Both the position numbers and the translations under genes were made by a program. From a virus, in IMG/VR virus record IMGVR_UViG_3300045988_180880, positions 319,950 to 383,949 of that record: a stretch of DNA of 64,000 nucleotides. One strand, written 5' to 3'. This document shows, in pieces, positions 5,506 to 60,940 of the stretch (its first letter is position 1; every line of letters begins with the position of its first letter). The notes under the pieces were generated by a model. That model made no database searches. It had not been told where the DNA came from and saw only the letters and a list, made by a program, of their open reading frames with translations.

Positions 5506-5513
5506 TAAAAACT

Positions 5514-7016
5514 ATGGCAAGCGTAGCAAGTTTAGTCCGCGGAAGTGACGGATACATGAAATTTATTGACTATCAAAGTACATATAAAGATAATAATAAA
5601 GAATTCCTTCGTGGTGACATGTGGGAACTTCAATTCATTAATGTACCTAAGATAAATAATTGTCTTAGTAAAACTTTGTAAACTGCTGGAAGATCAAGTA
5701 AAGATAAATCAGCAAAAATAGATAAAAAATCTATTTCTCAACGACTATTAGCAAAGAAAAGAAATAGCCATAGATTTCTTTTATGATATAGTCTAAACAT
5801 AGAACAAATGTTTGAGTTTATTTCCCTGGTACTGATATTTTCAATGCTAGATTAAATGCCGTTCAGGTAGGTATTGATTATAGTGTATCAGGTTTTGAAA
5901 AGAGAATGCGTGGTAATTATACTATCATTCAGAAGACAGGTCAAAACACAGCTGGAACCCTGTCGTTGGCTTTTGTAGATAAGGAAGATCAGGCAATTAC
6001 TTACTGGTTTGATAATTTAAAAGTTGTCCATTAAGAGATTAAAAGTTCCTTAATGAATCTTTGTGAACTGCTGGAAATTTTAATCGCTCAAGAATGATAA
6101 AAACTAAGAGCGGAAAAATAATCAGCAGAAATAGATATGATTCTATTTTTCAACGACTAAGTACAAAGAAAGAGGATAAGCCATAGTTCCTCTTATGATA
6201 TAGTCTAGTATGATTTAAAACAAAAACCATAAGGACTATCGCCAGAAAATTGCAGATCGTGATACTAAATATTCTTTCAGAAAGGATGACTTAGTATGCG
6301 ACCTTAGATTAATCTTAACTAACTCAAGCCGTATCAAAGTTCGTACTCTTAATTTCTATAACTGTATTCTTCAGGATGCACCGATTGATGAAAATGGGCA
6401 GACTGAGGACGGAACCGATTAATAGCTTAGTCGCTTAAATAATAAAATTTAAGAAAATTATACTAAAATGCTGGAAAAATCTTGGTTATACCAAGTATAA
6501 ATCAGCAAAAACTATTAAAAATAGTTTCTCAACGACTAAATGTATAACTTAAGAAGTATTAATTCTTAAGATGATATAGTCTATAATATATTAATGTATA
6601 TTAACAAATGCGAGCAGATATCCAAGTCAGCTTTTTCAAATGAAGAAGCATAAAGTAATATAAACTTTATGAAAAATTCTATTAAAATGCTGGAATATCA
6701 AATAGATAATCAGCAAAAATTAGAAAAGATCTAATTTCTCAACGACTAAATATAGAACTAAGTTTGAAATATAATTTAGATGATATAGTCTATTCATTGA
6801 TAAAAATAATTAATGACTTTAAAGCAATTTGAACATTTTGGAAAATTTCATGGTGTTTTCTACAAGAATTGCTGGAAAATTTGTATCTTTGTATACAAAT
6901 AATCAGCATCCTAGATATTAACATAAATCTAGGTTCAACGACTATGTATGTAGACTGAGGAAATTCCTTAGGTGATATAGTCTGTCATGAGGTGAAATTC
7001 ATTGATTAACGTATGA
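5514..7016 (+). CDS. tail tube protein (T4 gp19-like), split by five group I introns
   Basis: join(5514..5653,5815..6016,6234..6419,6611..6634,6816..6836,~7005..7016). The spliced product is ~194 aa: ...RGDMWELQFINVPKI|VYFPGTD...AITYWFDN|DYRQKIADRD...GQTEDGTD|RADIQVSF|TLKQFEH|(INV). It is collinear with T4 gp19 landmarks as I recall them (PNLFQVEI; GFMNRKI..DDWTVTVMNDE..KFVDW; NEIQTFEVTLALDYWE). The six-frame track has no ORF at all in 5506-7086. The last exon is uncertain. Confidence 0.75.
5654..5814 (+). ncRNA. group I intron 1 (ORF-less, 161 nt, no P2)
   Basis: P1 is ctaagat/gtcttag (5647-5653/5662-5668) with a U5653-G5662 wobble at the 5' splice site. P3 ctttg/caaag (5674-5678/5752-5756). 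P4 tgctg/cagca (5684-5688/5710-5714). P7 gacta/tagtc (5743-5747/5789-5793). P9 aaacat/atgttt. Terminal G5814. The classical P/Q/R/S blocks are ctgctgg, aatcagca, tcaacgacta and gatatagtct. Confidence 0.85.
6017..6233 (+). ncRNA. group I intron 2 (ORF-less, 217 nt)
   Basis: P1 gataat/gttgtc (6011-6016/6023-6028; U6016-G6023 wobble). P2 cattaag/cttaatg (6029-6035/6049-6055). P3 ctttgt/acaaag (6059-6064/6163-6168). Core blocks: ctgctgg 6068-6074, aatcagca 6120-6127, tcaacgacta 6150-6159, gatatagtct 6197-6206. Extended P5 cgctc/gagcg. Terminal G6233 restores the frame. Confidence 0.8.
6420..6610 (+). ncRNA. group I intron 3 (ORF-less, 191 nt)
   Basis: P1 cgat|taa / ttagtcg (6416-6422/6427-6433; U6419-G6430 wobble; tetraloop tagc). 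P2 cttaaat/atttaag (6434-6440/6447-6453). P3 tatac/gtata (6459-6463/6542-6546). Core blocks: tgctgg 6469-6474, aatcagca 6500-6507, tcaacgacta 6529-6538, gatatagtct 6573-6582. Terminal G6610. Confidence 0.8.
6635..6815 (+). ncRNA. group I intron 4 (ORF-less, 181 nt)
   Basis: P1 gcttt|ttc / gaagaagc (6630-6637/6642-6649; U6634-G6645 wobble; loop aaat). P2 cataaag/ctttatg (6649-6655/6665-6671). P3 ttctat/atagaa (6677-6682/6752-6757). Core blocks: tgctgg 6688-6693, aatcagca 6708-6715, tcaacgacta 6739-6748, gatatagtct 6782-6791. Terminal G6815. Confidence 0.8.
6837..7004 (+). ncRNA. group I intron 5 (ORF-less, ~168 nt; 3' boundary uncertain)
   Basis: P1 gaacat/gtgttt (6831-6836/6853-6858; U6836-G6853 wobble). 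P3 tctaca/tgtaga (6859-6864/6949-6954). Core blocks: tgctgg 6870-6875, aatcagca 6901-6908, tcaacgacta 6935-6944, gatatagtct 6974-6983. P5 atttgtat/atacaaat and P6 cctagat/atctagg. Candidate terminal G at 6989, 6991, 6994, 7004 (used here) or 7011. Confidence 0.65.
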
Positions 7017-7170
7017 AAGAACTTTTGATAATATTTAAAAAAATAACTTAATAAACTAGAAGTATCTAATTTATTATTTCTTATGATTGCAAGGAAGGGT
7101 GGATCTGATCAATCTGCCCTTCTTCATAAGAAATATATTAGATATTTCCTTAAAAAAAATTGCAATCAAT

Positions 7171-8069: not shown

Positions 8070-8585
8070 ATGAACCTACTAGATATATTACTCCCACTCC
8101 CTAGACGAAGAAGAGAAAAGGAAGAATTGAAAAAACTAGAGCCAGAAATAAAAAATCTTGAAGAAAAACTTGGATTAATTGGAAGAACTGGAACAGAAGT
8201 TTATTATGATCCACTCTATGAACGAAATAGAGGAAGAAAATATGATCTTAAAGGCCGAAAGGAATACCTAGAAGACCTCAGAAAACGATTAAACAATGGG
8301 TATAAGAGTTCGAATGTAATACGAGCTAGTGGATATTTTAGTCCAGGTAATTCTAATGAAAAAGATACTTTTAACCCAATCATAAAAGAATTACCTAAAC
8401 CAAGTAAGGTAGTGTATGTAGTATTAATAAGAAAAACTATTGATATCCCAAAAACGATAAAAATAGAGAACAGTACTGAATATAAAATAAAAAGTACAAA
8501 CTCTGAATGTGATAATATAGAGGATTACTATATTATAAAAGAATTGGATGAAAACGCTAAAAAATTTATTAAATCTCTAATATGA
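8070..8585 (+). CDS. hypothetical protein (MxLLxILLP family)
   Basis: 171-aa ORF. The N-terminus MNLLDILLP...EEKLGL...YYDPLYERN is paralogous to the 9579 ORF. ATGA overlap with the next gene suggests translational coupling. Confidence 0.7.
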   Translation: MNLLDILLPLPRRRREKEELKKLEPEIKNLEEKLGLIGRTGTEVYYDPLYERNRGRKYDLKGRKEYLEDLRKRLNNGYKSSNVIRASGYFSPGNSNEKDTFNPIIKELPKPSKVVYVVLIRKTIDIPKTIKIENSTEYKIKSTNSECDNIEDYYIIKELDENAKKFIKSLI

Positions 8586-9505
8586 TCATATTAAGAAAAT
8601 ACCCAGAGGAACAGAAAGAATTTAGTATACTTTCAGAAATATCTCAATTGGGTTTAAGGAAAGGAACGAAAAATTATATCAGGAAACAAAAAAGAGATGT
8701 GGTGAACAAATTAATTCAAAATAAACGAGATTTTCTTGCAAAAACGAAGAAGACAGAAAGAAAATTGACTAATCTTCGAAAAGAAACAAAAGAGAATGAA
8801 TTAATAGCCAATAATCTGAAAAAAGAAGCTAATAGAGTAAACACTGATATAATACCCGATAATAAATTTTCTAAACTAGTACATCAGCCTAAAGGAGATA
8901 AATCCTATATTCTCGATAAAGAAAAGAGAAATCTACTTAAGCAAATGTCTAATGATAAAAATTTGGATAAAGCTAGTAGAGAGTTAGCCAGATCAAGTTC
9001 GGCCAAAGATGCAATTATAAATCTTAACTCTGATGCAATAGGAAAAGACACCCCGTTTGTTGCCCATGAACTAGGTCATGTTAAAAATAGTAAAAAATCT
9101 ATTAATTCTGCAATTCAAAAACTAGCTGATAAATCTAATAATAGTAAAGGAATATTAGCTGATATTGGGAAAAGAACTATTGGAATTCAAGAAGAAAATA
9201 ATGCCTGGAAAAATGGAATAAAGGATTTAAAAAAGGCTGGTGCAACGAAAGAAGAGATTAAACATGCCAAAAGTCTAGAAAATGCTGCAGTAGATACATA
9301 TAGAAAAGGAAATAGTTTAAGAAATAACTTAAATGAAAAGCTATTAAATAAATTACATCCAAAAGAAATAGATAACTATAAAGTATTTCCTGGATCTCAT
9401 AAAGAAGAAAAAGATTTAATGGAACTTTTTGGAGATAAAGGAAGAACTGAAAGACAGAAATATAATTTAAGAAGAAAAATAATAAATAAAAGGAAATCTA
9501 AATAA
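8582..9505 (+). CDS. leader-family protein with HExxH metallopeptidase-like motif
   Basis: N-terminus MIILRKYPEEQKEFS. HELGH at 9065-9079, followed by EENNAWKNGIKDLKKAGATKEE. This block is shared with the 10430, 14828 and 20729 products. Confidence 0.75.
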   Translation: MIILRKYPEEQKEFSILSEISQLGLRKGTKNYIRKQKRDVVNKLIQNKRDFLAKTKKTERKLTNLRKETKENELIANNLKKEANRVNTDIIPDNKFSKLVHQPKGDKSYILDKEKRNLLKQMSNDKNLDKASRELARSSSAKDAIINLNSDAIGKDTPFVAHELGHVKNSKKSINSAIQKLADKSNNSKGILADIGKRTIGIQEENNAWKNGIKDLKKAGATKEEIKHAKSLENAAVDTYRKGNSLRNNLNEKLLNKLHPKEIDNYKVFPGSHKEEKDLMELFGDKGRTERQKYNLRRKIINKRKSK

Positions 9506-9526
9506 TTATATACTATTATAAAAAAA

Positions 9527-9578
9527 ACAATAAAGAAGAGTAACTTTGATCGGTTACTCTTCTACTAAAACAATTACT
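9527..9578 (+). promoter_or_regulatory. conserved 5' block with hairpin (copy 2 of 2)
   Basis: acaataaagaagagtaactttgatcggttactcttctactaaaacaattact. Perfect hairpin agagtaac/gttactct. Confidence 0.6.
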
Positions 9579-9752
9579 ATGAGCCTACTAAATATATTAC
9601 TTCCTAGACAAAGGATGATAAATCAAGAAATAAAAAGTCTTGAAGAAAAACTTGGATTAACCGAAAGAGATACAAAAACTCTTTTCTATGATCCACATTA
9701 TATTAGAAATAAATCATTTCAAACAAGAAAAGATTATCTAAACTATAACTAG
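9579..9752 (+). CDS. hypothetical protein, short paralog of the 8070 gene
   Basis: ATG 9579 (MSLLNILLPRQRMINQEIKSLEEKLGL..FYDPHYIRN), 57 aa. The listed ORF 9546 begins at a TTG inside the upstream hairpin, which I rejected. Confidence 0.55.
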   Translation: MSLLNILLPRQRMINQEIKSLEEKLGLTERDTKTLFYDPHYIRNKSFQTRKDYLNYN

Positions 9753-9815
9753 AAAAAAATGATAGGGCGCTAAAATGCTTCTCTAAAAGTAAGAAAAAAC
9801 ATTAGAAGGATAAAA

Positions 9816-9844
9816 AAGAAGATCAACTTTTCGTCAATCTTCTT
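9816..9844. terminator. hairpin terminator between convergent genes
   Basis: aagaagat/atcttctt stem. The U-run is good on the minus strand (after gene 9853..10122) and weaker on the plus strand. Confidence 0.55.
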
Positions 9845-9852
9845 TGTAGGGA

Positions 9853-10122
9853 CTATTTAAGTGATTCTTTATATTCTTTTATCTCTTTACCACATTGATA
9901 GATCAATTCAGAAATACCTTCTGCACTTTCTAATGTATCTGTATTATCTAATACATTAGATACAACTTTACACCAATGTCTATCTTTTTCAGAAAGAGAA
10001 TCTGGATTTTTCTTATATTTATACATCATTTCTGCACCTAAATTATACCCTGCACCTTTTACCAATTTAAAAGCTGCTATAATTGATATAGTAGCTAATC
10101 CAATTTTTAATAATGTTTTCAT
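9853..10122 (-). CDS. small membrane protein, hypothetical
   Basis: 89 aa with an N-terminal hydrophobic helix (LLKIGLATISIIAAFKLV). Promoter-like motif ~24 nt upstream and a terminator downstream. Confidence 0.7.
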   Translation of the reverse strand: MKTLLKIGLATISIIAAFKLVKGAGYNLGAEMMYKYKKNPDSLSEKDRHWCKVVSNVLDNTDTLESAEGISELIYQCGKEIKEYKESLK

Positions 10123-10145
10123 ATCTTTTATATATTTTATTTATT

Positions 10146-10162
10146 ACATATATAAGGCTTTT
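10146..10162 (-). promoter_or_regulatory. promoter-like motif (AAAGCCTTATATATGT family)
   Basis: Plus strand reads acatatataaggctttt, which is aaaagccttatatatgt on the gene strand. It lies ~24 nt upstream of ATG 10122. Confidence 0.6.
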
Positions 10163-10184
10163 ACTCCTTCCAAAAATTAATATC

Positions 10185-10214
10185 GGGGGGGGGTAAAAGT
10201 ATAAACAATTCCTC
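10185..10214 (+). promoter_or_regulatory. G9-tract element upstream of a leader-family gene (divergent copy)
   Basis: gggggggggtaaaagtataaacaattcctc, with the G9 run at 10185-10193. It ends ~18 nt before ATG 10232. Confidence 0.5.
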
Positions 10215-10231
10215 TTCGATACAAATATTAA

Positions 10232-10408
10232 ATGATTATAAAACGTAAACTATTTTCTAAAGATTCAAAAGTTCTCGTCCCTTATTTTGAACCTGGCATT
10301 ACTGAAACTGGTAGACGATACGTAACACTAATCACTAACGATGGAAGAAAGAAGCGGCAATATATAGATCCGTATAGAAAGAGAACTAAAAAAGAATTAG
10401 AAAACTAA
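10232..10408 (+). CDS. leader-family small protein (58 aa)
   Basis: The ORF lies between the listed ORFs 9853..10122 and 10563..11228 and is absent from the track. MIIKRKLFSKDSKVLVPYFEPGITETGRRYVTLITNDGRKKRQYIDPYRKRTKKELEN. Confidence 0.6.
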   Translation: MIIKRKLFSKDSKVLVPYFEPGITETGRRYVTLITNDGRKKRQYIDPYRKRTKKELEN

Positions 10409-10429
10409 CTTAACTTATTAATTAAAATT

Positions 10430-11228
10430 ATGATAATCAAAAGAAAACTGTTTAGTAAAAAAAGAGGAGAATAAAAACTTCAATGACACTAGTTCAAAAG
10501 CAAAAGGAACTGCTTTATATCTTGGAGGTGCGGTAGCGGGTCAAGGTATCGCTGCACCTATAATGATGAAACATATGCAAGACGAACCCTCAGAAGAATC
10601 TGCAAAAATAGCTGAAAAACTAAAAAGATTAGCTTCTAGACGAGGACATAAAGTAGATAATATTACATATACTGGAATGGGACCTGCATATCAAAATAAT
10701 AAAATTTATACAAGTGGAACAAAAGCAGCTGATGTTCTTTCACATGAAATGGGACATGCTCACTATGATAAAAGAAAAGTAAAATCAGTAAGTGATGCTA
10801 TTGGTAAAGTTGCTCATAAAGCTTATCTAAAAACTGGTGGAATGTTGAATCATACAGTTCTAGCTCCTACAGCAGGAATAATAGCAGGTGTTAGATCAGG
10901 TAAAAAAGCAGCAGAAAAAGAAGCAGCCGGAGAAAAAGAATCAAAACTCTCCAGACATAGTGGATGGGCATCTGGTTTAGCTGTTCAATCTCCAGGGCTA
11001 GTATCAGAGGCTATGGCAAGTAAACATGGTCTAGATTTAATGAAAAAAGCTGGTGCCTCTAAGAAATTAATGAAAGCTAGTCGAAAAAACCTAGGTGTAG
11101 CTTTAGGAACTTATGCTGGAGTTGCTGTAACTAATGCAGGAATGTCAGAATTAGCTAGAGGAATTGCATATAGAAAGAAAAAGAAAAAATTAGAGAAGGA
11201 AAAAGATAAAAAGAAAGATGATAAATAA
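10430..11228 (+). CDS. leader-family HExxH protein, reading frame interrupted at an A7 run
   Basis: ATG 10430 gives MIIKRKLFSKKRGE, with a stop at 10472-10474. The +1 frame is open from 10455 through the listed ORF 10563..11228 (..KKEENKNFNDTSSKAKGTALYLGGAVAGQGIAAPIMMKHMQ...). HEMGH at 10743-10757. Removing one A from the run at 10457-10463 restores a family-typical protein. Confidence 0.55.
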
Positions 11229-11910: not shown

Positions 11911-12114
11911 TTAAATGTTAATTTCAATAGTGTAGTAACCTTCTGGAATATTCCATATCTCAGAAGATAATGCATTTTTAGGTACTTCTGTATTTTCGTT
12001 AATAGGATATAACATTACTATTTTATAATTACATTCTAAATGAGATCTTATTATATCTTTCTCTTCATCAGTAAGTTTTTTCTCAATTACCGCTTCTTTG
12101 ACTATTCTTTTCAT
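11911..12114 (-). CDS. hypothetical protein, paralog of the 11607 gene
   Basis: 67 aa, with the promoter-like motif upstream. C-terminus LYPINENTEVPKNALSSEIWNIPEGYYTIE. Confidence 0.65.
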   Translation of the reverse strand: MKRIVKEAVIEKKLTDEEKDIIRSHLECNYKIVMLYPINENTEVPKNALSSEIWNIPEGYYTIEINI

Positions 12115-12140
12115 AATTCTACGTATTTAAAATTTATATT

Positions 12141-12157
12141 ACATATACGAGGCTTTC
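12141..12157 (-). promoter_or_regulatory. promoter-like motif (variant)
   Basis: Plus strand reads acatatacgaggctttc, ~27 nt upstream of ATG 12114. Confidence 0.5.
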
Positions 12158-12647
12158 AAATTGATAAAAAGGAGGTTTTATATAGGTTTGTCCCTTATTT
12201 ATGAGGACAAAGGAGTTTCCCTTATCCTACACCTCTAACCGCTACCGCTAGAGGTGTCTTAGAAAAGAAACATTGAATAAGATATATAGGAAATTTTAAT
12301 ATAATATCATTTTAATTAAGTTGACACCCCTTTGGCCTCTGGGGGCCAGGGGTGGTGTTTCTAGATTAAAAGCTCATAGAAATCCTAAACATAAATATTC
12401 CATGTCTCCGACATAATCTTATGTTCTTTATCTATATGAGCAAGTGTCGCAAATTCTTTAGATAATATCTTTTATAGTGGAGAGTCAAAAATAATAAATT
12501 AAATCGACAAAATGCGTATAATATCCTTTCAATCCCTTATGATTGAAAAGGGAATCCTCCTATGTCTTCAATTTAAAGAGACATAGAAATTCTTTTAACT
12601 GGATTCTCTATTAGATTATAATAAATTTAATAAAAAATTATACGTAT
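12158..12647 (+). promoter_or_regulatory. long structured ORF-poor leader upstream of the helicase-like gene
   Basis: ~490 nt with no listed ORF. Blocks cttatttatgaggacaaagga (12194-12214) and tgaataagatatatag (12274-12289) are shared with the inverted paralog's leader. GC-rich hairpin at 12324-12358 has G-U pairs valid only on the + strand. Further hairpins: acacctcta/tagaggtgt, atgtc/gacat, ctatgtct/agacatag. Confidence 0.55.
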
Positions 12648-14720
12648 ATGTCAATACTAAAATTACCTAATATCGTAGTACCAAGAGGTATTAGATATAT
12701 TTCAGAAATGGATAGTTTATTTAGATTTTATAAACTACCTGTAAAGTGTATAATTAATAAGCAACTTCCTGGATGTGGTTTTACAGAATACTGTATTAAT
12801 GGACCAGAAAATGTTATTCTGTGTAGTCCTAGAAAAATGCTCTTAAAGAATAAGAAGGATCAACATGGTAGAGATGTTTATTTGGTTGTAAATGAACTTG
12901 AGAAGGAAATAGAGGTTGATAAAGATCTCTCCAAGATAGATAAAATTAGATCTCAAGTATTTATGGATACTCTTAAAGAAGTAGTTCATGGAAAGGATAC
13001 AGTTTATAATAAATTAATGAATGAAATTAAAGATTATCTAAATGAGAGGAAGTACTTAGGGGATAAGCCCGCTAAGATCTTAGTTACATATGATTCATAT
13101 AGAATAGTAAAAGATATTCTAAAAAGTCTTGGAATATTTCAGAGTTTCTATACAGTAATAGATGAATTTCAAACTATCCTACATGATTCTAAATTTAAAT
13201 CAGATACTGAATTAGAATTCTTAGATATTCTTAAGCAATCTCATAGTGCATTATTTGTATCAGCTACTCCTATGTTAGAGGAATATCTTAATATGTTAGA
13301 TGAGTTTGATGGTTTACCTTATATTAATATGGATTGGGGTAAGGAGGATTCAACACGAATTATTAAACCAAATCTTAAGGTTTTATCTATGAAATCTACT
13401 GGATCTAAAGCAGAAGAGATCATAAAAACATATAAAGAGGGTAACTTTGAAAAATTTATCAAAATGGTTAATGGATATCCTAGGGAAATAATATCAGATG
13501 AAGCAGTGCTTTATGTAAACAGTGTGAATCATATTATATCTATCATCAAGAAATGTGATTTACAACCTGAAGAAGTAAATATCCTCTGTTCTAATACTCC
13601 TGAGAATCTAAAAAGAATACAAAAGAAATTAGGAAAGAAGTTTGTAATAGGGGAAGTTCCATTGAAAGGAGTAAAATCTAAAATGTTTACATTTTGTACA
13701 AGAACGGTTTACCTAGGCGCGGATTTCTATAGTTTATGTGCTAGATCTTTTATCTTTAGTGATAGTAATATAGATAGTCTAGCCGTAGATATCTCAGAAG
13801 ACTTGCCTCAGATATTAGGACGTCAGAGATTGTTTGATAATCCTTGGAAAAATAATGCAATATTTTATTATAGACCTACATGTGACTATAGAAAGGTTAG
13901 TCAAGAGGAATTTGATAGAGAGATTGAGAGAAAGAAAAAAGCTACTAATGATTTACTACTGTCATATAGTTCAACTCCTGATGAGGCAAAATTAACGTTG
14001 GCTGAGAGATATCAAAAAATGGCAAAGTCATTTAATTATAAAGATGACTATGTAGCAGTAAATGAACACTCCAGGTCTACTCTAATTCCTGTTATTAATA
14101 ACCTAGTTCTGGTAAATGAAATTAGAGCCTTCAGGATACAACAATATGACTATAAGGATAGATTTACAGTATTTAGTTCAGTACATAATACACTAGATAC
14201 AAATGATCTAATAAATCGAGAGGTTTCTGAATTTTTAAGTATGTATCAAGAATTAAAAACATACTATGATAAAATAAAATTACTATGTGAATATAACTTA
14301 TCTGAGCAGGGGGTTAGAATAATATTAGATCAGTTAGGAGGAGATGAGATAGCATCTCACTATATAGCATTGGGTCCTGATAGATTAAGGAAACTTTATT
14401 ATAATAAAACTAACATTAAGAAGGAACTAGGTATAGTAACCTTCAGTAGGGAACTCTTAGTTAATACAGTTCTCTCCAAGTTTTCTATTGGAGATAGAAT
14501 AGGTCAAGCAAGGATAAAAGAAATTCTTAAAAGTCTATATAATTCTATTGGATATTCTGCTATTCCAAAGGCTACTGATTTGGAAGAATTCTTTAATATA
14601 AAAAGAGCAAAAGTTAGTGAAGTTCTTTTAGATGGTACAAAAAAAAGAATAGATGCATTAGAGATAATAGGAGTTAAGCCAGAGTATCAAGGAATATATA
14701 ATAACCTGAAAAAACAATAA
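12648..14720 (+). CDS. SF2 helicase-like protein with lysine-less P-loop and family-specific C-terminal module
   Basis: Motif I-like LPGCGFTE (12768-12788). Motif II DEFQ (13161-13172). Motif III SAT (13260-13268). Motif V-like TRTVYLGADF. Motif VI QILGRQR (13809-13829). The C-terminal ~290 aa is shared with 55852, 57282 and 58309. Confidence 0.75.
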   Translation: MSILKLPNIVVPRGIRYISEMDSLFRFYKLPVKCIINKQLPGCGFTEYCINGPENVILCSPRKMLLKNKKDQHGRDVYLVVNELEKEIEVDKDLSKIDKIRSQVFMDTLKEVVHGKDTVYNKLMNEIKDYLNERKYLGDKPAKILVTYDSYRIVKDILKSLGIFQSFYTVIDEFQTILHDSKFKSDTELEFLDILKQSHSALFVSATPMLEEYLNMLDEFDGLPYINMDWGKEDSTRIIKPNLKVLSMKSTGSKAEEIIKTYKEGNFEKFIKMVNGYPREIISDEAVLYVNSVNHIISIIKKCDLQPEEVNILCSNTPENLKRIQKKLGKKFVIGEVPLKGVKSKMFTFCTRTVYLGADFYSLCARSFIFSDSNIDSLAVDISEDLPQILGRQRLFDNPWKNNAIFYYRPTCDYRKVSQEEFDREIERKKKATNDLLLSYSSTPDEAKLTLAERYQKMAKSFNYKDDYVAVNEHSRSTLIPVINNLVLVNEIRAFRIQQYDYKDRFTVFSSVHNTLDTNDLINREVSEFLSMYQELKTYYDKIKLLCEYNLSEQGVRIILDQLGGDEIASHYIALGPDRLRKLYYNKTNIKKELGIVTFSRELLVNTVLSKFSIGDRIGQARIKEILKSLYNSIGYSAIPKATDLEEFFNIKRAKVSEVLLDGTKKRIDALEIIGVKPEYQGIYNNLKKQ

Positions 14721-14827: not shown

Positions 14828-15697
14828 ATGATAATAAAACGTAAACTAATTTTTGATAGTCCTGAACAAAGAGAGTTTGGGATTCCTTGGAAAAAGTATG
14901 CGAAATATGGAATGAGGTCTGTTAAAGACCACGGGTTAAGAAAAGGAATAAGAAAACTTCGATTTAAGATTTCTGATGATATTGATAAATCAATTAAAGC
15001 AAATGAAAAGGCTCATAAGGCTCTTGATGAATATACTAATAATACTGAATTTCCCAAACGATCAGAAGTAATGGAAGCTTTAGGTCAAGAAGCAAAGAAA
15101 AGAGGAATAGTTGTAATAAAAGGTAAAAAAGAATATAAACAGATATTGAAAGGTGGAGAAAAAATAAAACGCTCTTCTTATGATAGAAGTGAACCTTGGG
15201 CAGTTCCTAAAGAATATATAAAAAAGAAAGATATAATTAAGTATACTAAATCTAATTTTCCAGAGGATAGAGAACTTGGAAAAGCATTATCTAAAGGAAA
15301 AGCTGTAATAAATCAAAAAGGAAGTCAGGCAGTACTTGCTCATGATATTGGACATATTATGAATCGAAGTAAGACAAAAACAGGGATTGTATCTAAAGTA
15401 AATGATGTAACAAAATCGATTTATCAAGATAGTAGAAATAAAAAGGGATTAGGAAATTATTTACTAACTTCTGCAACAGGAAAGATTTTATTAAAAGAAG
15501 AAAAGAATGCTACTAAAAATGCAATGAGTCTTTTAAAATCAGCTAATGCAACTCCAAATGAAATGATTGCAGCCAGAAAAGAATTAGGAGCAGATTTTGG
15601 AACATATATGCATGGTTATAAAGCAAGTAAGGGAAGAATATTAAAGGGAGTAGTAAAACCGAATAGAATAAAGAAGAAAAATAAAAAGAGACGTTAG
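14828..15697 (+). CDS. leader-family protein with degenerate HDxxH motif
   Basis: MIIKRKLIFDSPEQREFG... HDIGH at 15341-15355, followed by EEKNATKNAMSLLKSANATPNE, which aligns to the HExxH paralogs. TAG stop. Confidence 0.75.
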   Translation: MIIKRKLIFDSPEQREFGIPWKKYAKYGMRSVKDHGLRKGIRKLRFKISDDIDKSIKANEKAHKALDEYTNNTEFPKRSEVMEALGQEAKKRGIVVIKGKKEYKQILKGGEKIKRSSYDRSEPWAVPKEYIKKKDIIKYTKSNFPEDRELGKALSKGKAVINQKGSQAVLAHDIGHIMNRSKTKTGIVSKVNDVTKSIYQDSRNKKGLGNYLLTSATGKILLKEEKNATKNAMSLLKSANATPNEMIAARKELGADFGTYMHGYKASKGRILKGVVKPNRIKKKNKKRR

Positions 15698-55851: not shown

Positions 55852-57279
55852 TTATTTTCTTTTTAATAATTCATAACCTCTAATCTGCTTTCTAGTTCCA
55901 TCCTCTTTCTTTTCATACATAACTACTGATTTAACGTCAAAATAGTTTTCAATATCACTAGCTTTCGGTGTAGCATCATAATTAATAGAATTATAAAGAT
56001 TTCCAAGTTTTACCTTGAGATCTGATAAACTATACTTCTCTCCAGGATTAAAATTTAAAGTAATAGTATTAATTAATAACTCTTTACTAAACGTTACTAT
56101 TCCAAGTTCTTTTTTAATATAAGTCTTACTATAAGTTAAAGCTTTAAGTTTCTTAGGCCCTAGAGCGAGATAGTAAGATTTAACTTCATCAGAATCAGCT
56201 ATTTGTCCAAGAACTATATTTAATTCAATATCAGATATAAAATTGTATTCACATAACATTTTAAGTTTATCATGCATAGTAGTTAATGTATCATAGATAC
56301 AGAAAAATCTTGTTACATCTCTATTTACTATATCATCAGGAGTAAGTTTGGAATGAACTGAACTAAATACACTAAATCTATCCTTATAATCCACCTGCTG
56401 TATCTGAAAAGCTCTAATCTCATTAACAAGAACTAATTGATTAATAACCGGTTTAAGAATAACATCTCCAGTCTGAGAATTAATAACTTTATTTACAGCT
56501 ATATAATTATCTCTATAATTTGCTGACTTGGCTACATATTGATAAGTTTTTGCTAAATCATATTTATCTTTATCTAAAACAGTGTTATATGCAGATAATA
56601 AACTTTCAGTAGATTTATTTTTGCTATCTATTATATTTTGGAAATCTTCTTTCTTCATTTCTCTATAATCTGCTGTAGTTCGATAATAGAAAGTAGCACT
56701 GTTTTTCCATGGATTTTTCTGAATATCTATCTTATCAGAATAATCCCTAAATAATTCTTCAAAATCATAAGAATCTATATAAGATATCTCAGAATTATAC
56801 TCTTTCTCCCATATCCCTACAGTAAGAGATCTATGAAATTCAGGATTATATAATTCTTCCAATCCCTCTGAAACAGATAACTCCTCTATCTCTTTTAATA
56901 TACTATCTAAGTATTTACTCTTTAATTCCTGTATCCCTGGAACTTCTGATTTTAAATACTCCCTAAATCCTACTATATAATCTTCCTTACTAATTAAATA
57001 CTTATCCTCTAGTGATATCTTCTGAAAATTATCTACTATCTCTTGAGAATAATAAAACCATTCTTTCCTTTTAGGATAACTATATTTATTATATAAAGAG
57101 TGAAAGTAAGATTCTAATTCTGTATTCCCTTCTCTAGTATCTAATAATCTACACTCAGGATTGTGTAAGTAATAAGAGTCTATTCTAGAATTTATATCTT
57201 TTGTATATCCGATCTTCAAGAGATCTAATACCTCCTTCGTATCTTTATTATAGTATGTTGTTTCTATTAAGTATATCAT
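55852..57279 (-). CDS. T5orf172 (GIY-YIG-like) head fused to the helicase-family C-terminal module
   Basis: The N-terminus IYLIETT..LLKIGYTKDINSRIDSYYLHNP..ELESYFH..KEWFYYS matches the T5orf172 pattern (YvI..KIGiT..R...L..p..E..lH..EWF). From NPWKNSATFYYRTTADYREMK onward it is collinear with the C-termini of the 12648 and 58309 products. Confidence 0.7.
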   Translation of the reverse strand: MIYLIETTYYNKDTKEVLDLLKIGYTKDINSRIDSYYLHNPECRLLDTREGNTELESYFHSLYNKYSYPKRKEWFYYSQEIVDNFQKISLEDKYLISKEDYIVGFREYLKSEVPGIQELKSKYLDSILKEIEELSVSEGLEELYNPEFHRSLTVGIWEKEYNSEISYIDSYDFEELFRDYSDKIDIQKNPWKNSATFYYRTTADYREMKKEDFQNIIDSKNKSTESLLSAYNTVLDKDKYDLAKTYQYVAKSANYRDNYIAVNKVINSQTGDVILKPVINQLVLVNEIRAFQIQQVDYKDRFSVFSSVHSKLTPDDIVNRDVTRFFCIYDTLTTMHDKLKMLCEYNFISDIELNIVLGQIADSDEVKSYYLALGPKKLKALTYSKTYIKKELGIVTFSKELLINTITLNFNPGEKYSLSDLKVKLGNLYNSINYDATPKASDIENYFDVKSVVMYEKKEDGTRKQIRGYELLKRK

Positions 57280-57281
57280 AT

Positions 57282-58304
57282 TTATCTTTTTTTAATAATC
57301 TCAAAATAATTTTCTCTTAATTTAGTTATTTTATCTGTTACTTTGCATCTTTTAACCTCAAAATAATTCTCTAAATCTGTTGCCTTAGGAGTAGCGTCAT
57401 AGTTAATACTGGAATATATTTTTCCTAACATGTTTTTTATTTCAGACATTTTTAACTTATCTCCTATCTTAAATTCTGAATATATACTAGATTCTAAAAG
57501 TTCTTGACTAAATGTAACTATTCCTAATTCTTTTTTTATTTTTGTTAAATTATACCCTAATGATTTTAATCTTTTGGGAGTAATAGATAAATAATAAGAC
57601 TTAATTTCATCACTATCATTTATTTGGCCTAATACTATATTAATAGCATTTTGAGATAATTCATACTCACAGAGAAGTTTTAATTTATCATATATAGTAG
57701 TCAATCCCGTATATATTCCTAAAAACTCAGATACTTCCTGATTTACTATATCATCCTTACAATATATTCCAGTCTCCCTAGATTTAACTATTTCTAAGTA
57801 CTTAGAATATAAATCTCTATCTACTAAAGGATCTGTTTTTATATAATCTAATACACTGGATACACAAAACTTATCTCCTAAGGTAGTAATAAGATTTTCT
57901 AGGTAATCTAAGTATTCCGTTTTCGTTAAGAATAAGTATTTTATTATCTCTATTACTTCATTCTTTAGATTAGTAAATTCTATCTCTCTTCTTCTAGGAG
58001 ATTTAGGAAGAGATTCTAAGTCTATATTATCTATATCCTTAAAGAAATTTATTATATCTTCCGAATAATAAAACCATTCATTCCCATATTCATTATATTT
58101 CAGACCTCTAAATTTATACTGTATTCTTTTCTCTATATCTTCTGGGAGATTAGGTATTTCATAGAGAACCTTACATGTAGGATTATGAAGTTTATATAGT
58201 TGAAATCTTTTATCTTTATTATTATCTTCTGTATACCCTATTTTTAGGAGATGAATTAAATTCTCACTCTCGTCATATCCTGCTGACTTAATTAAATATA
58301 TCAT
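57282..58304 (-). CDS. T5orf172 (GIY-YIG-like) head fused to the distal part of the family C-terminal module
   Basis: The N-terminus IYLIKSAGY..LLKIGYTEDNNKDKRFQLYKLHNP..IEKRIQYKF..NEWFYYS. The C-terminal ~150 aa (VNQEVSEFLGIYTGLTTIYDKLKLLCEY...LGIVTF..YDATPKATDLENYF) is near-identical to the 58309 product. Confidence 0.7.
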   Translation of the reverse strand: MIYLIKSAGYDESENLIHLLKIGYTEDNNKDKRFQLYKLHNPTCKVLYEIPNLPEDIEKRIQYKFRGLKYNEYGNEWFYYSEDIINFFKDIDNIDLESLPKSPRRREIEFTNLKNEVIEIIKYLFLTKTEYLDYLENLITTLGDKFCVSSVLDYIKTDPLVDRDLYSKYLEIVKSRETGIYCKDDIVNQEVSEFLGIYTGLTTIYDKLKLLCEYELSQNAINIVLGQINDSDEIKSYYLSITPKRLKSLGYNLTKIKKELGIVTFSQELLESSIYSEFKIGDKLKMSEIKNMLGKIYSSINYDATPKATDLENYFEVKRCKVTDKITKLRENYFEIIKKR

Positions 58305-58308
58305 AATC

Positions 58309-60336
58309 TTATTTTTTACTTATTATATTGTATACTTTTACTATTTTCTTTATCCCATCTATTTCCACCCTAGCAGAAGACTCCTTTACATTGAAATAAT
58401 TTTCTAGGTCCTTTGCTTTAGGAGTCTTATTGTAGCCTATAGAATTATATAAATATTCTAATCTATCCTTTATAATAGATAGTGCTAGTTTATCTCCTAT
58501 TTTAAATTCTGAGTAAATACTAGATTCTAGGAGCTCTTGATTAAAAGTAGCAATTCCCAACTCTTTTTTTATTTTTGTACTATTATAAGATAGTGATCTT
58601 AATCTATCTGGAGATAAAGAAGTATAATAAGACTTAATCTCATCACTATCATTAATTTGTCCTAGTACAACCTGAATAGCATCCTCGGATAAACCATATT
58701 CACATAATAATTTTAATTTATCATATATAGTAGTTAATCCGGTATATACCTTCAGAAACTCAGATACCTCTTGATTTACTATGTCATCTGGTGTAAGTGT
58801 ATTATGAACTGTACTAAATACTGTAAATCTATCTTTATAATCAATTTGTTGTATCTTAAAAGCCCTAATTTCGTTTACTAATACTAAATTATTAGGAACA
58901 GGTTTAAGAATAATATTATCGTCAGGAGTATGAATTTTATTTACTGCTACATAATTTTCTTTATAGTTTGCAGATTTAGCTACATACTGATAATTTTTTG
59001 CTAATGTATATTTAGTATCATTTGGGGCTGAATCAAAAGCTTTTAATAAATTCTCTGTATCTTTCTTCTTAGATTCTATTATTCTCTTAAAATCTTCTGC
59101 TTTCATTTCTCTATAGTTGGCCGTAGATCTATAATAAAAAGTAGCTGAATTCTTCCACGGATTATCAAATAATCTCTGTCTCCCTAGAATCTGTGGTAAG
59201 TCCTCTGAGATATCTACTGCAAGGCTATCTATATTACTATCGCTAAATATAAAACTTCTAGCACATAGACTATAAAAATCTGCCCCTAGATATACAGTCC
59301 TAGTACAGAATGTAAACATCTTAGGCTTTTCTCCTTTCAATGGAACTTCACCTATTTTAAACTTCTTTCCGAGCCTTCTTTGAATTTTCTTAAGGTTATC
59401 TGGAGTATCTGAACATAATATATTACATTGTTCTGGGGTAAGATTATTCTTTTTTACGATAGATGTAATATGATTGACAGAGTTTACATAGAATACAGCC
59501 TCATCTGATACTACTCTAGTAGGAATTCCATTTCTAAGAACTACTATACTTTCAAAATCTCCTGAAAGATATTTTTGAATAACCTCAGAAGCCTTTTCTC
59601 CTACTGCTCTCATTACAAATACATCTAGTTCCGGTTTAATAACTCTCGATGAATCTGCAGATCCCCAATCCAATTCATAGTATGGAAGATCTCTAAATTC
59701 ATCTAACATTTCCAAGTACTCATCCATCATTGGGGTAGCTGATACAAAATATGCAGTAGGAGATTGTTTAAGGTATTCTAAGAATTTAAGTTCTGTATCC
59801 GATTTAAATCTCGAATCGTGAAGTATTGACTGGAACTCATCTACTATAGTATAGAATGTATAAAATCTATCTAGTTTCTCCAGTATATCTTTTACAATTC
59901 GATAGGAATCATAGGTTACTAATATTTTACAGGGTAATCCATTAATACTTCTAGAAGTACAATACTCTTCAATCTCTCGGTATAATCTTTTATAGATTTC
60001 TGAATTATTATCCATAAATTTCTCATCTAGTTCAGCATCTAAATTAGTATTTTTATCAACCTTGGATAGGTCTTTATCTATATTAGATTCTTTATCCATT
60101 TCATTTACTACTAAGTAGACATCAAATTCATGTTGATCCTTTTTATTCTTAAGTAACATCTTTCTAGGACTACATAAGATAACATTCTCTGGTCCACCTA
60201 TACAATACTCTGTAAAACCACATCCAGGAAGTTGTTTATTTATTATACATTTACTAGAGAAATTTGAAAAACAAAAATCCCTCCATTCACCAATATACCT
60301 AATTCCTCTAGGTACTATAATATTAAATTTTTCCAT
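58309..60336 (-). CDS. SF2 helicase-like protein with lysine-less P-loop, inverted paralog of 12648..14720
   Basis: It has the same motifs as the 12648 product: LPGCGFTE at 60208-60228, DEFQ, SATP, TRTVYLGADF and QILGRQR. Long identical peptide runs with 12648. Confidence 0.75.
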   Translation of the reverse strand: MEKFNIIVPRGIRYIGEWRDFCFSNFSSKCIINKQLPGCGFTEYCIGGPENVILCSPRKMLLKNKKDQHEFDVYLVVNEMDKESNIDKDLSKVDKNTNLDAELDEKFMDNNSEIYKRLYREIEEYCTSRSINGLPCKILVTYDSYRIVKDILEKLDRFYTFYTIVDEFQSILHDSRFKSDTELKFLEYLKQSPTAYFVSATPMMDEYLEMLDEFRDLPYYELDWGSADSSRVIKPELDVFVMRAVGEKASEVIQKYLSGDFESIVVLRNGIPTRVVSDEAVFYVNSVNHITSIVKKNNLTPEQCNILCSDTPDNLKKIQRRLGKKFKIGEVPLKGEKPKMFTFCTRTVYLGADFYSLCARSFIFSDSNIDSLAVDISEDLPQILGRQRLFDNPWKNSATFYYRSTANYREMKAEDFKRIIESKKKDTENLLKAFDSAPNDTKYTLAKNYQYVAKSANYKENYVAVNKIHTPDDNIILKPVPNNLVLVNEIRAFKIQQIDYKDRFTVFSTVHNTLTPDDIVNQEVSEFLKVYTGLTTIYDKLKLLCEYGLSEDAIQVVLGQINDSDEIKSYYTSLSPDRLRSLSYNSTKIKKELGIATFNQELLESSIYSEFKIGDKLALSIIKDRLEYLYNSIGYNKTPKAKDLENYFNVKESSARVEIDGIKKIVKVYNIISKK

Positions 60337-60922
60337 ATATTTAAATTATTAAATTTATTAATATCTTTTAGAACTCAATACAGAGTTCAGTTTAATTGTT
60401 AAGTATCCTAATTCTGAAGACTAGGGATACCTTTATTTCATTAATTAGAATTTAAAGGTATCAGAAAGGCAAAATGTATACTTTAACTGGGAATAGAAGA
60501 TACTATCGCAATATAATATTTAATCTATTGAAAAAGTATACATCCTATAGTGGTTCTTCTAAATAAGCGAATATAATGAGAGACCCGCCTCCCCTTCAGG
60601 GAGAGCGTGGTCGTCTTATTTAGAAGGTTCACGATACATAAATATTAATATTATCTTTATTATTTATACTAATGAACCTTAAAAAGAAACGGCCGTTCGC
60701 CCTTTGAGAGGGCGAGGCCTTTCAGTTCCTTCATTCTTTTTAAGAACCATTAAAGAAATAATTTTTTTTATTCAGTTTTTATTAATATTTATCTTTCTCT
60801 TTTATTCTCTATATATCTTATTCAGTCTTGTGAGCGTAAGCGACCCGTAATGAGCTATGTAAATAGCGAATGGAGGGATACACATGGGTTCCTTTGTCCT
60901 CATAAATAAGTTACAATAGAAT
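60337..60922 (-). promoter_or_regulatory. long structured ORF-poor leader upstream of the helicase-like gene
   Basis: ~590 nt with no listed ORF. It shares the conserved blocks (60890-60910 and 60809-60824 on the plus strand) with 12158-12647. GC-rich hairpins at 60581-60616 (the wobble fits the minus strand) and 60691-60719. A 10-bp hairpin gataccttta/taaaggtatc. Confidence 0.55.
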
Positions 60923-60939
60923 AAAAACCTTATAAGTGC
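60923..60939 (+). promoter_or_regulatory. promoter-like motif (variant) abutting the start codon
   Basis: aaaaaccttataagtgc ends 1 nt before ATG 60941. Confidence 0.45.
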
Positions 60940-60940
60940 T

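Follow-up and report, generated by a model that had tools for sequence, protein, structure and literature searches.

The window analysed here, a 64,000-nucleotide (64 kb) stretch of a viral genome, contains two open reading frames, ORF A and ORF B, with the following domains and motifs.

12648..14720, + strand: ORF A, SF2 helicase-like protein of 690 aa
58309..60336, − strand: ORF B, paralog of ORF A, 675 aa, 63% amino-acid identity
ORF A residues ~25-230: RecA1 (helical insertion at ~77-137); ~240-410: RecA2; 415-690: C-terminal module
12759..12785, + strand: ORF A Lys38 (12759-12761) and motif I, G-C-G-F-T (12771-12785)
60211..60237, − strand: matching Lys (60235-60237) and motif I, G-C-G-F-T (60211-60225), of ORF B
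13161..13172, + strand (A), and 59830-59841, − strand (B): motif II, DEFQ
13260..13268, + strand (A), and 59734-59742, − strand (B): motif III, SAT
13698-13727, + strand (A), and 59275-59304, − strand (B): motif V, TRTVYLGADF
13809-13829, + strand (A), and 59173-59193, − strand (B): motif VI, QILGRQR

We find both reading frames where the initial annotation had placed them, and the peptides that it had singled out (LPGCGFTE, DEFQ, SAT, TRTVYLGADF and QILGRQR) occur collinearly in both proteins, whose 63% identity extends across their full length. The two genes are convergent and 43,588 bp apart, in agreement with the earlier description of genes facing each other across ~44 kb. The further proposal that they form a special inverted pair bracketing the late operon does not hold, as A and B belong to a dispersed family with at least five paralogs in each related genome and nine in one of them. 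PHROG searches with 20 large ORFs from the A-B interval and left flank recognise only a tape-measure-like and a tail-fibre-like protein, and no capsid, portal or terminase.

Whole-gene comparison of A and B gives dN/dS of ~0.17, hence not near 1, with dS close to saturation (pS 0.68, pN 0.24), and in the motif V-VI window the disparity is wider still (pS 0.73, pN 0.03). A 55-codon stretch had earlier been aligned by hand and described as identical in peptide and different only at synonymous positions; this description stands, but the second range was one codon off. Pairing 13680-13844 with 59161-59325 offsets the peptides, whereas pairing it with 59158-59322 yields identical 55-aa peptides, with 26 rather than 25 differing codons (28 nt), 26/26 of them synonymous. 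The motif V-VI span, 13698..13829, falls within this stretch, which is 100% identical as protein and carries synonymous changes in its DNA. Around motifs I/Ia, 13/34 codons differ with a single amino-acid change. Conservation between A and B far exceeds chance, and the codon comparisons indicate that each gene is under purifying selection, bearing out the claim that both copies are constrained, the P-loop region included. We find no low-dS tract between A and B that would signal gene conversion and, because dS is also saturated, the duplication is old, as had been proposed.

Motif I and the extent of the family

Few catalytic residues in biology are as conserved as the Walker A lysine; its replacement in canonical SF2 and other P-loop enzymes abolishes ATPase activity, and helicases are routinely inactivated by mutating it. 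An AlphaFold2 model of ORF A (pLDDT 87.9, pTM 0.84) predicts two tandem RecA-like domains, and Foldseek matches it with probability 1.0 to Brr2, RecQ, Mfd, Cas3 and Hel308 in the PDB, as well as to viral SF2 and origin-binding helicases, including the Marseillevirus and herpesvirus origin-binding proteins. The SF2 helicase-like fold that had been suggested is thus well supported, and AlphaFold and Foldseek point to a generic two-RecA SF2 fold, with motifs II, III and VI present and the motif I Lys absent. In the predicted topology of ORF A, a strand (33-37) leads into the loop KQLPGCG and a helix (45-51), after which motifs Ia, Ib, II and III come in their canonical order. This order places Phe45 in the model at the position of the Walker A Lys, as first read from the motif, and neither GKT nor GKS is found anywhere along the full length of the ORF A and ORF B proteins.

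The P-loop assignment rests on predicted topology and motif order because profile methods fail to align motif I to canonical helicases. The hhalign comparison of the family core is not significant against either a four-sequence RecQ/BLM profile (probability 0.3) or a single RecQ sequence (probability 0.2), and searches of PDB sequences and Pfam give no match in the motif I region. Pfam alignments of naturally insertion-less homologues and of an insertion-deleted construct likewise do not reach motif I.

A survey for GCGFT-type signatures finds the lysine-less motif I throughout the family, as the initial annotation had suggested looking for, and not just in this genome. Across ~390 homologues (to 22% identity) motif I reads K-x3-G-[CSV]-G-[F/Y/A/G/M]-[T/S]; none has Lys at the Walker A position, and all have Lys seven residues upstream, at the predicted end of strand beta-1. 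Among 127 representatives, obtained by clustering the homologues at 50% identity, position 45 is F in 84, Y in 21, A in 11, M in 6, L in 2 and I in 1, and K38, D172, Q175, S205, G357, D359, Q388, G391, R392 and R394 are invariant. The motif VI residues of this set (Q388, G391, R392, R394) are invariant in 129/129 sequences, and in motifs II and III, D172, E173, Q175, S205, A206 and T207 are invariant or almost so. Near-invariance extends family-wide to the motif I Thr, motif II D-E-x-Q/H, motif III S-A-T, motif V and motif VI Q-x-x-G-R-x-R. In a distant branch, 119/120 proteins carry K-x3-G-[CS]-G-[AG]-[TS] together with DE[ASC]H, and a branch from Bacteroidales MAGs has the same lysine-less signature.

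These data establish A and B as ancient paralogs in a large family of SF2 (DExQ/H-type) helicase-like phage proteins, so far uncharacterised, with the architecture RecA1 - RecA2 - ~270-aa C-terminal module and comprising 1,520 clusters at 50% identity (>5,000 proteins). It is claimed by no family in Pfam, PHROG, NCBIfam or the PDB sequences. NCBIfam and PDB sequences return no match for A or B, either as single sequences or as an 81-sequence profile, and PHROGs give one weak match for ORF B, to an unnamed family. Pfam DEAD (PF00270) aligns ORF A residues 131-211 to profile positions 86-162, spanning motifs Ib-III, at 17.9 bits, under its gathering threshold of 26 bits, and does not match ORF B or three distant homologues; Pfam matches to UTP25 and Herpes_ori_bp are likewise absent. 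One database source labels a homologue 'Utp25'.

Leaders, nuclease-like neighbours and genomic spacing

Both genes are preceded by long leaders, and the C-terminal module recurs in two genes next to ORF B; the initial annotation had recorded neither feature.

11976..12647, + strand: leader of ORF A, 672 nt, no ORF of 90 aa or more, predicted folding z = −6.6
12189-12290, + strand: bipartite element of the A leader, motif 1 (GAGGACAAAGGA) at 12203-12214, motif 2 (TGAATAAGATATATAG) at 12274-12289
12329-12352, + strand: GC-rich terminator-like hairpin in the A leader
60337..60940, − strand: leader of ORF B, 604 nt, predicted folding z = −9.1
60808-60915, − strand: bipartite element of the B leader, motif 1 at 60890-60901, motif 2 at 60809-60824
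13890..14717, + strand: C-terminal module of ORF A (residues 415-690), helices plus two beta-hairpins; recurs in ORFs C and D
57282..58304, − strand: ORF C, 340 aa, N-terminal T5orf172 (GIY-YIG superfamily) domain
55852..57279, − strand: ORF D, 475 aa, T5orf172-like N-terminus plus shared module

The B leader is predicted to form two long nested hairpins with GC cores, and the median folding z of 50 leaders is −3.8. The bipartite motif of the leader is cassette-specific: a family gene lies 258-685 nt downstream on the same strand in 44/44 testable copies, and within the 64 kb window both motifs occur upstream of A and B and nowhere else, a distribution that leads us to reject a general promoter. 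We also reject a closed structured RNA, since the 5' flank of the upstream element is variable while its 3' block is invariant; RNAalifold returns 0 pairs, single-sequence z-scores range from −2.5 to +1, Rfam gives no match at gathering or permissive thresholds, and tRNAs are absent. A small ORF is rejected because its ATG is not conserved and an in-frame stop is present. Spacer types of the leaders are shuffled across paralog classes, and neither the leaders nor the long regions upstream of the homologues in 90 kb phages show convincing iterons or origin-like repeats. Two leader sequences, GAGGACWAAGGA and TGAATAAGATAT, were singled out as candidate targets of the C-terminal module.

ORF C matches Pfam T5orf172 (PF10544) over residues 2-84 with 22.2 bits, above the gathering threshold of 20 bits; its end corresponds to the last ~157 aa of the C-terminal module of A and B, with 70% identity to ORF B. 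ORF D has two PHROG matches, both unnamed, and is placed as T5orf172-like by the 38% identity of its residues 1-91 to the ORF C N-terminus; ~287 aa of it are homologous to A398-677 / B392-675, the shared region starting at NPWKN, immediately past motif VI. A fold search with the C-terminal module gives no significant neighbour (best E = 0.09, with weak winged-helix-like hints only), and nucleic-acid binding by the module is therefore a conjecture. One or two T5orf172 genes ending in this module adjoin the family gene in 33/80 loci (~40%). Matches of ~3 kb in tblastn, considered as an intron or intein, were rejected as such; they correspond to a helicase-like gene and downstream gene(s) with the same C-terminal module. 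A comparable chimera is ICP1 Gp88/Odn, a nuclease that joins a T5orf172 domain to a recognition module taken from another protein, namely the DNA-binding domain of RepA (PMC8263062).

Related phage contigs of 330-385 kb each carry at least five old paralogs, 40-68% identical and with saturated dS, and the same paralog identity classes recur in every related genome. In one 376 kb contig, the single genome in which even spacing is fully mapped, nine paralogs lie evenly spaced ~40 kb apart (gap CV 0.21, P 2.5e-5). We conclude that gut phages of this clade (~330-385 kb) carry the gene in several copies as a dispersed cassette, whose order is a long, strongly structured leader, the SF2-like gene and, at ~40% of loci, one or two nuclease-like genes of the T5orf172 type. 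That each copy heads a divergent gene block is not general, the upstream ORF being co-directional in 69/106 loci. In 90 kb phages that carry a single copy, a long non-coding region likewise lies upstream. The D'Alembert homologue adjoins an HNH endonuclease.

Candidate functions and comparison with known systems

A very large natural family has long been without the Walker A lysine, yet every other ATP-site residue is conserved and the family has stayed under purifying selection, and this combination therefore points to either a new SF2 solution to phosphate binding or a new type of pseudo-enzyme. We know of no giant phage genome for which the organisation seen here (about nine old paralogs evenly spaced ~40 kb apart, structured leaders and, often, nuclease-like genes that copy the C-terminal module) has been described; the pattern may bear on the replication, transcription or delivery of a ~375 kb genome.

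We lean cautiously towards ancient cassettes of lysine-less SF2-like paralogs that are still nucleotide-dependent, are addressed through their C-termini, and share the address module with nucleases. The family protein would then be a nucleotide-dependent nucleic-acid motor or switch rather than a dead scaffold, with a non-canonical phosphate-binding loop two residues longer than usual; the Walker A lysine may be replaced there by Lys38 further upstream or by a different invariant Lys. Through the C-terminal module the protein would be targeted to a particular nucleic-acid site, which may lie in the leaders, and the neighbouring T5orf172 genes would be nucleases that copied this module, much as ICP1 Odn copied the RepA DNA-binding domain. 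Counting against this explanation are the loss of ATPase activity in canonical enzymes whose Walker A Lys is replaced, and the variation at position 45 (F, Y, A, G, M), which supports no specific chemistry there. A bolder form, which we regard as unlikely, makes the protein an active NTPase whose catalytic Lys has moved to the start of an enlarged P-loop (K38), as in WNK ('with no lysine') kinases, in which the canonical catalytic Lys is missing, the rest of the active site is kept, and a Lys from a neighbouring element substitutes. About nine paralogs with cognate structured leaders would then split the ~375 kb genome into evenly spaced, individually addressed ~40 kb domains, with T5orf172 nucleases sharing the address domains; these domains could be multiple origins, or a motor relay for genome entry or transcription. 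We know of no WNK-like lysine rewiring described for SF2 enzymes.

It is possible, though doubtful, that nucleotide binding and hydrolysis have been lost, leaving an ATP-independent nucleic-acid-binding clamp, scaffold or cofactor in which the 'catalytic' residues are re-used for binding nucleic acid or partners. The absence of the Walker A Lys from all ~390 members examined and the chemically unconstrained replacement fit such a protein, as do the precedents of Utp25 and D. radiodurans PriA (PMC9539457). Known pseudohelicases such as Utp25, however, lose several motifs together (PMC9539457), while here the motif I Gly/Thr, motif II D-E, motif III and the Gln and both Arg of motif VI are invariant to 22-30% identity; and although one homologue bears the name 'Utp25', the Pfam UTP25 model does not match. 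We consider it quite unlikely that the paralogs are UL9-like origin-binding helicases, each recognising its own leader through the C-terminal module, with the leaders as multiple origins and the T5orf172 chimeras as origin-directed nucleases. Their structural matches to origin-binding proteins (E 1e-10 to 1e-7, ~11% identity) are no better than those to generic SF2 enzymes, even if such proteins are among the viral matches and the N-terminal SF2 core with a C-terminal specific module is common to both. UL9 carries a canonical GKT. The long non-coding region before each copy, also in single-copy 90 kb phages, the even ~40 kb spacing in the one genome mapped and the Odn analogy would suit a set of origins, but the leaders are rich in GC hairpins, yielded no iterons or AT-rich unwinding element when searched, and coincide with no consistent strand switch.

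Least probable of all, in our judgement, is a selfish homing or transposing element, made up of leader, SF2-like gene and GIY-YIG-type nuclease, that has multiplied within the genome. Random insertion predicts the reverse of even spacing, terminal repeats around the cassettes were not seen, and the age of the paralogs, the purifying selection on them and the recurrence of the same identity classes in every related genome all argue against it; in its favour are the dispersed multi-copy distribution, the homing-endonuclease-type T5orf172 genes, the HNH endonuclease beside the D'Alembert homologue and the shuffling of leader spacers.

The preferred reading, nucleotide-dependent and C-terminally addressed cassettes, can be set against known systems. 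Like the SF2 DExH/Q helicases (RecQ/BLM/WRN, Ski2/Brr2, Hel308, Mfd, Cas3), the phage proteins have a predicted two-RecA fold with motifs Ia, Ib, II, III, V and VI in order; unlike them, they have F, Y, A, G or M in place of the Walker A Lys, and are only 10-12% identical, with no significant sequence-profile match. RecQ and BLM have a hydrophobic residue (V or L) seven positions ahead of the Walker A Lys, where the phage family has its invariant Lys. The best viral structural matches include origin-binding SF2 helicases (herpesvirus UL9 type; NCLDV 'helicase origin-binding protein'), which resemble the family in joining an N-terminal SF2 core to a C-terminal module thought to give specificity but differ in that the match does not exceed generic SF2, Herpes_ori_bp is not detected and the leaders have no origin-like repeats. 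The likeness to WNK kinases is an analogy only: a universal catalytic Lys is absent and other active-site residues are retained, but fold and chemistry differ, and substitution by K38 is hypothetical.

With the pseudohelicases (Utp25/Def; D. radiodurans PriA) the family shares a helicase fold and a defective motif I. True pseudohelicases lose most motifs, and Utp25 lacks the DEAD sequence, its remaining motifs being vestigial and mutationally dispensable (PMC9539457), whereas in the phage family only the motif I Lys is gone and motifs II, III, V and VI are kept invariant. ORFs C and D resemble Odn in fusing T5orf172 to a module from another protein. Odn carries at its N-terminus a domain taken from the RepA of a parasite (PMC8263062), whereas these putative nucleases end in the C-terminal module of the SF2-like gene beside them, a member of the phage's own paralog family.

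Divergence and constraint in the helicase-like pair

The window encodes two SF2 helicase-like paralogs, A and B, found exactly where the initial annotation had placed them:

A: 12648..14720, + strand, 690 aa
B: 58309..60336, - strand, 675 aa

The two proteins are 63% identical over their full length (BLASTP), and both carry the reported LPGCGFTE, DEFQ, SAT, TRTVYLGADF and QILGRQR motifs at collinear positions. The genes converge across 43.6 kb (47.7 kb from start to start), and the DNA between them forms an extended co-directional block that encodes a tape-measure-like and a tail-fibre-like protein (PHROG). None of the others among 20 large ORFs scanned within and next to this interval has a functionally named PHROG match, which leaves the "whole late operon" of the initial annotation a putative one. 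No obvious Shine-Dalgarno sequence lies 5' of either ATG.

Codon-aware Nei-Gojobori analysis of the whole genes gives pS of 0.68 and pN of 0.24, and thus dN/dS of ~0.17 with dS close to saturation, in agreement with the old duplication and purifying selection that had been proposed. An earlier hand alignment of 55 codons was right in finding identical peptides and only synonymous differences, but its range in B was one codon out of register and its count of 25 differing codons does not stand: 13680-13844 and 59158-59322 encode the same peptide despite 26 differing codons (28 nt), 26/26 of them synonymous. Every sliding window has pS of 0.45-0.85, which leaves no tract of recent gene conversion, and the motif V-VI window combines pS of 0.73 with pN of 0.03. 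Constraint extends to the P-loop, as 13 of 34 codons around motifs I/Ia differ with a single amino-acid change.

Elsewhere in the window, three small basic proteins (8582-9505, 10563-11228 and 14828-15697, all +), the last encoded directly downstream of A, are apparently paralogous and have in common an H-E-x-G-H-like motif (HELGHVKN, HEMGHAHY and HDIGHIMN), from which they could be a metalloprotease-like family. A 960-aa ORF (259-3141, +) carries at its N-terminus an extended series of imperfect, acidic repeats (…LEDxRIDLxGTKE(S/A)E…) and no PHROG match.

A large phage family with a lysine-less P-loop

The A/B family is absent from the curated libraries searched. Pfam returns only a sub-threshold DEAD match for A (17.9 bits, cutoff 26) over residues 131-211, i.e., motifs Ib-III, and PHROGs, NCBIfam and PDB sequences give no convincing match for A or B also when a profile of 81 sequences is used. 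A confident AlphaFold2 model derived from the same 81-sequence alignment (pLDDT 87.9, pTM 0.84) matches Brr2, BLM/WRN/RECQ5, Mfd, Cas3, Hel308, HrpB and Prp2 with Foldseek probability 1.0 at 10-12% identity, upholding the SF2-like assignment. Among viral models, the best match is A0A5P8D573, an unnamed protein of 606 aa, the same length as the Edwardsiella phage homologue and possibly the same protein. Next come SF2 helicases of NCLDVs, origin-binding proteins of Marseillevirus and herpesviruses, and DEAD-like helicases of phages. Since the matches are spread over so many SF2 helicases and viral models, the predicted fold is a generic SF2 one that points to no particular parent family.

In the model of A, strand 33-37 (KCIIN) leads into the loop K38-Q-L-P-G-C-G and then into helix 45-51, which starts with Phe45, while motifs Ia (SPRKMLL), Ib (TYDS), II (DEFQ) and III (SAT) follow in canonical order on successive strands. 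This predicted order is well supported as a Walker A arrangement with Phe45 at the Lys position, as had been suggested, and neither A nor B contains GKT or GKS anywhere. The assignment derives from predicted topology and motif order rather than superposition, as hhalign of motif I against a RecQ/BLM profile was not significant and the Pfam match does not extend to motif I, even for homologues that lack the 77-137 insertion.

A survey of relatives reveals that the unusual P-loop is a trait of the whole family and not of this genome's pair alone. The family comprises >5,000 proteins by word-indexed search and 1,520 clusters at 50% identity by exhaustive search. Counted over A, B and 127 full-length representatives, residue 45 is F84, Y21, A11, M6, L2 and I1, and never K or R; G42, C43, G44, T46, D172, E173, Q175, S205, A206, T207, G357, D359, Q388, G391, R392 and R394 vary hardly or not at all. 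A distant branch, 23-26% identical, occurs in ~90 kb myovirus-like phages (Acinetobacter Phab24, Edwardsiella ET-ABTNL-9 and Psychrobacter D'Alembert), and 119 of its 120 members carry K-x3-G-[CS]-G-[AG]-[TS] together with DE[ASC]H and QIxGRxR. Motif I reads KxxxGCG[A/F/M/G]T in a third branch from Bacteroidales/Prevotella MAG contigs, for which two of the three search patterns were independent of motif I. The unusual P-loop defines a very large, uncharacterised phage family.

Loss of the Walker A Lys could mark these proteins as pseudohelicases, a reading that we favour less but that still carries substantial weight. True pseudohelicases, Utp25 among them, have lost most motifs together, with the DEAD sequence absent and the rest vestigial (PMC9539457), whereas in the A/B family only the Lys is gone. 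This difference favours proteins that still work in a nucleotide-dependent way, through a rewired phosphate loop. The obvious candidate is K38, which lies seven residues N-terminal to the Walker A Lys position, is invariant throughout the family and would stand in for the missing Lys; RecQ and BLM have Val or Leu there, and their loop is about two residues shorter.

In D'Alembert, Phab24 and ET-ABTNL-9 the homologue is single-copy and preceded by 0.9-2.2 kb with no annotated gene; that of D'Alembert is the first gene past the terminal-repeat region, and the genes after it encode an HNH endonuclease and an RNA ligase. A 3.4 Mb Prevotella MAG chromosome (OZ006992.1, 2577692-2589566) contains a family member of 962 aa (33% identical, motif I KALTGVGAT), possibly as part of a prophage, in which case a Bacteroidales host would be hinted at for that branch.

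Dispersed copies and their leaders

The initial annotation had treated A and B as an inverted pair, a framing that proves too narrow, as both belong to a dispersed multi-copy cassette family. A family-profile scan of IMG/VR gives 356 related stretches, the best 80 of which are distributed over ~25 contigs, the longest of 378 kb, with a maximum of five copies per contig within those 80. In the same 80, identity classes relative to A (~85/80, 76, 75, 65, 62, 61 and 59%) recur in each genome, a pattern of sequence identity that speaks for old paralogs maintained as a stable set. The contig nearest to the window, UViG_3300045988_179979 (328,776 bp), has an A orthologue that is 99% identical and at least four copies.

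In GTDB the family occurs on single 371-376 kb contigs binned in "Mycoplasmatota" or "Bacilli" MAGs; we take these as phage genomes, given their IMG/VR relatives and the tail proteins encoded in the window, and they look like mis-binned giant phages. One of them, JAGAYY010000025.1 (376,162 bp), contains nine copies, 40-68% identical to one another (median 45%):

Gene starts in JAGAYY010000025.1: 29.6, 73.9, 110.2, 149.9, 185.3, 231.1, 273.3, 299.5 and 346.0 kb

K-x3-G-C-G-[F/Y]-T and DEFQ are found in 9/9 copies and QI[LM]GRQR in 8/9. The copy at ~346 kb appears truncated (291 aa, then a stop), with motif VI recoverable from another frame or segment, and may be a pseudogene or an assembly error. 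The copies are evenly spaced, with gaps of 26-60 kb (mean 41.8 kb, CV 0.21), and the probability of so low a CV under random placement is 2.5e-5 (circular null) or 1e-5 (linear null) in this one fully mapped genome. Partial maps of IMG/VR contigs, made by hand from the best 80 of 356, give gaps of at least 27 kb, near multiples of ~40 kb.

Each gene follows a long non-coding leader, with a median upstream gap of ~610 nt over 106 loci. The median gap in the window is 28.5 nt; only four intergenic gaps exceed 500 nt, and A and B each lie behind one of them:

Leader of A: 11976-12647, + strand, intergenic gap with predicted structure
Leader of B: 60337-60940, - strand, intergenic gap with predicted structure

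The remaining two are 5506-7086 (1.58 kb) and 9506-10562 (1.06 kb), the latter with a small ORF (9853-10122, -).

The leaders have in common a bipartite element, GAGGACWAAGGA followed, after a spacer of 55-85 nt, by TGAATAAGATAT; the spacers are of few types, shuffled among paralog classes. The window contains the two motifs upstream of A and B only, on the gene's strand, and in IMG/VR the combined pattern is confined to these related phage contigs, where 44/44 testable copies are followed, at 258-685 nt and on their own strand, by a helicase-like gene. The element itself yields no consensus RNA structure, and the closing stem of our first idea proved wrong. Taken whole, the leaders have an exceptionally stable predicted fold, with z of -6.6 for the leader of A and -9.1 for that of B (median -3.8 over 50 distinct leaders from related contigs). 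A GC-rich hairpin lies shortly past the second motif in every leader, in a genome of ~30% GC, with at least six unrelated stem sequences; that of A scores terminator-like. Rfam and tRNA scans are negative. The leader may act as a small RNA of its own, as a regulatory 5' UTR or as a DNA site.

A C-terminal module shared with T5orf172-like neighbours

Two further ORFs, C and D, lie directly downstream of B:

C: 57282..58304, - strand, N-terminal T5orf172/GIY-YIG-superfamily domain (Pfam 22.2 bits, cutoff 20)
D: 55852..57279, - strand, N-terminus 38% identical to that of C

The last ~157 aa of C are 70% identical to the end of B, and ~287 aa of D are homologous to A398-677 and B392-675, beginning at NPWKN right after motif VI. 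A same-strand T5orf172-like gene is present at 33 of 80 loci, and an arrangement of genes like B-C-D accounts for the "3 kb" matches of other genomes. A and B are members of a multi-copy cassette system, evenly spaced in the one fully mapped genome, with structured leaders and nuclease-like genes that share the C-terminal module. Modelled alone, this module (A residues 415-690) reaches pLDDT 90 and has no significant structural neighbour, the best E-value being 0.09 with weak winged-helix-type hints.

The closest precedent is ICP1 Gp88/Odn, a T5orf172 nuclease which, by taking up a replication initiator's DNA-binding domain, came to cut the origin of that initiator (PMC8263062). The architecture of C and D, a T5orf172 N-terminus joined to the C-terminal module of a neighbouring gene, is analogous, and by this analogy the module probably acts as an addressing domain, with C and D as probable nucleases sent to the same sites.
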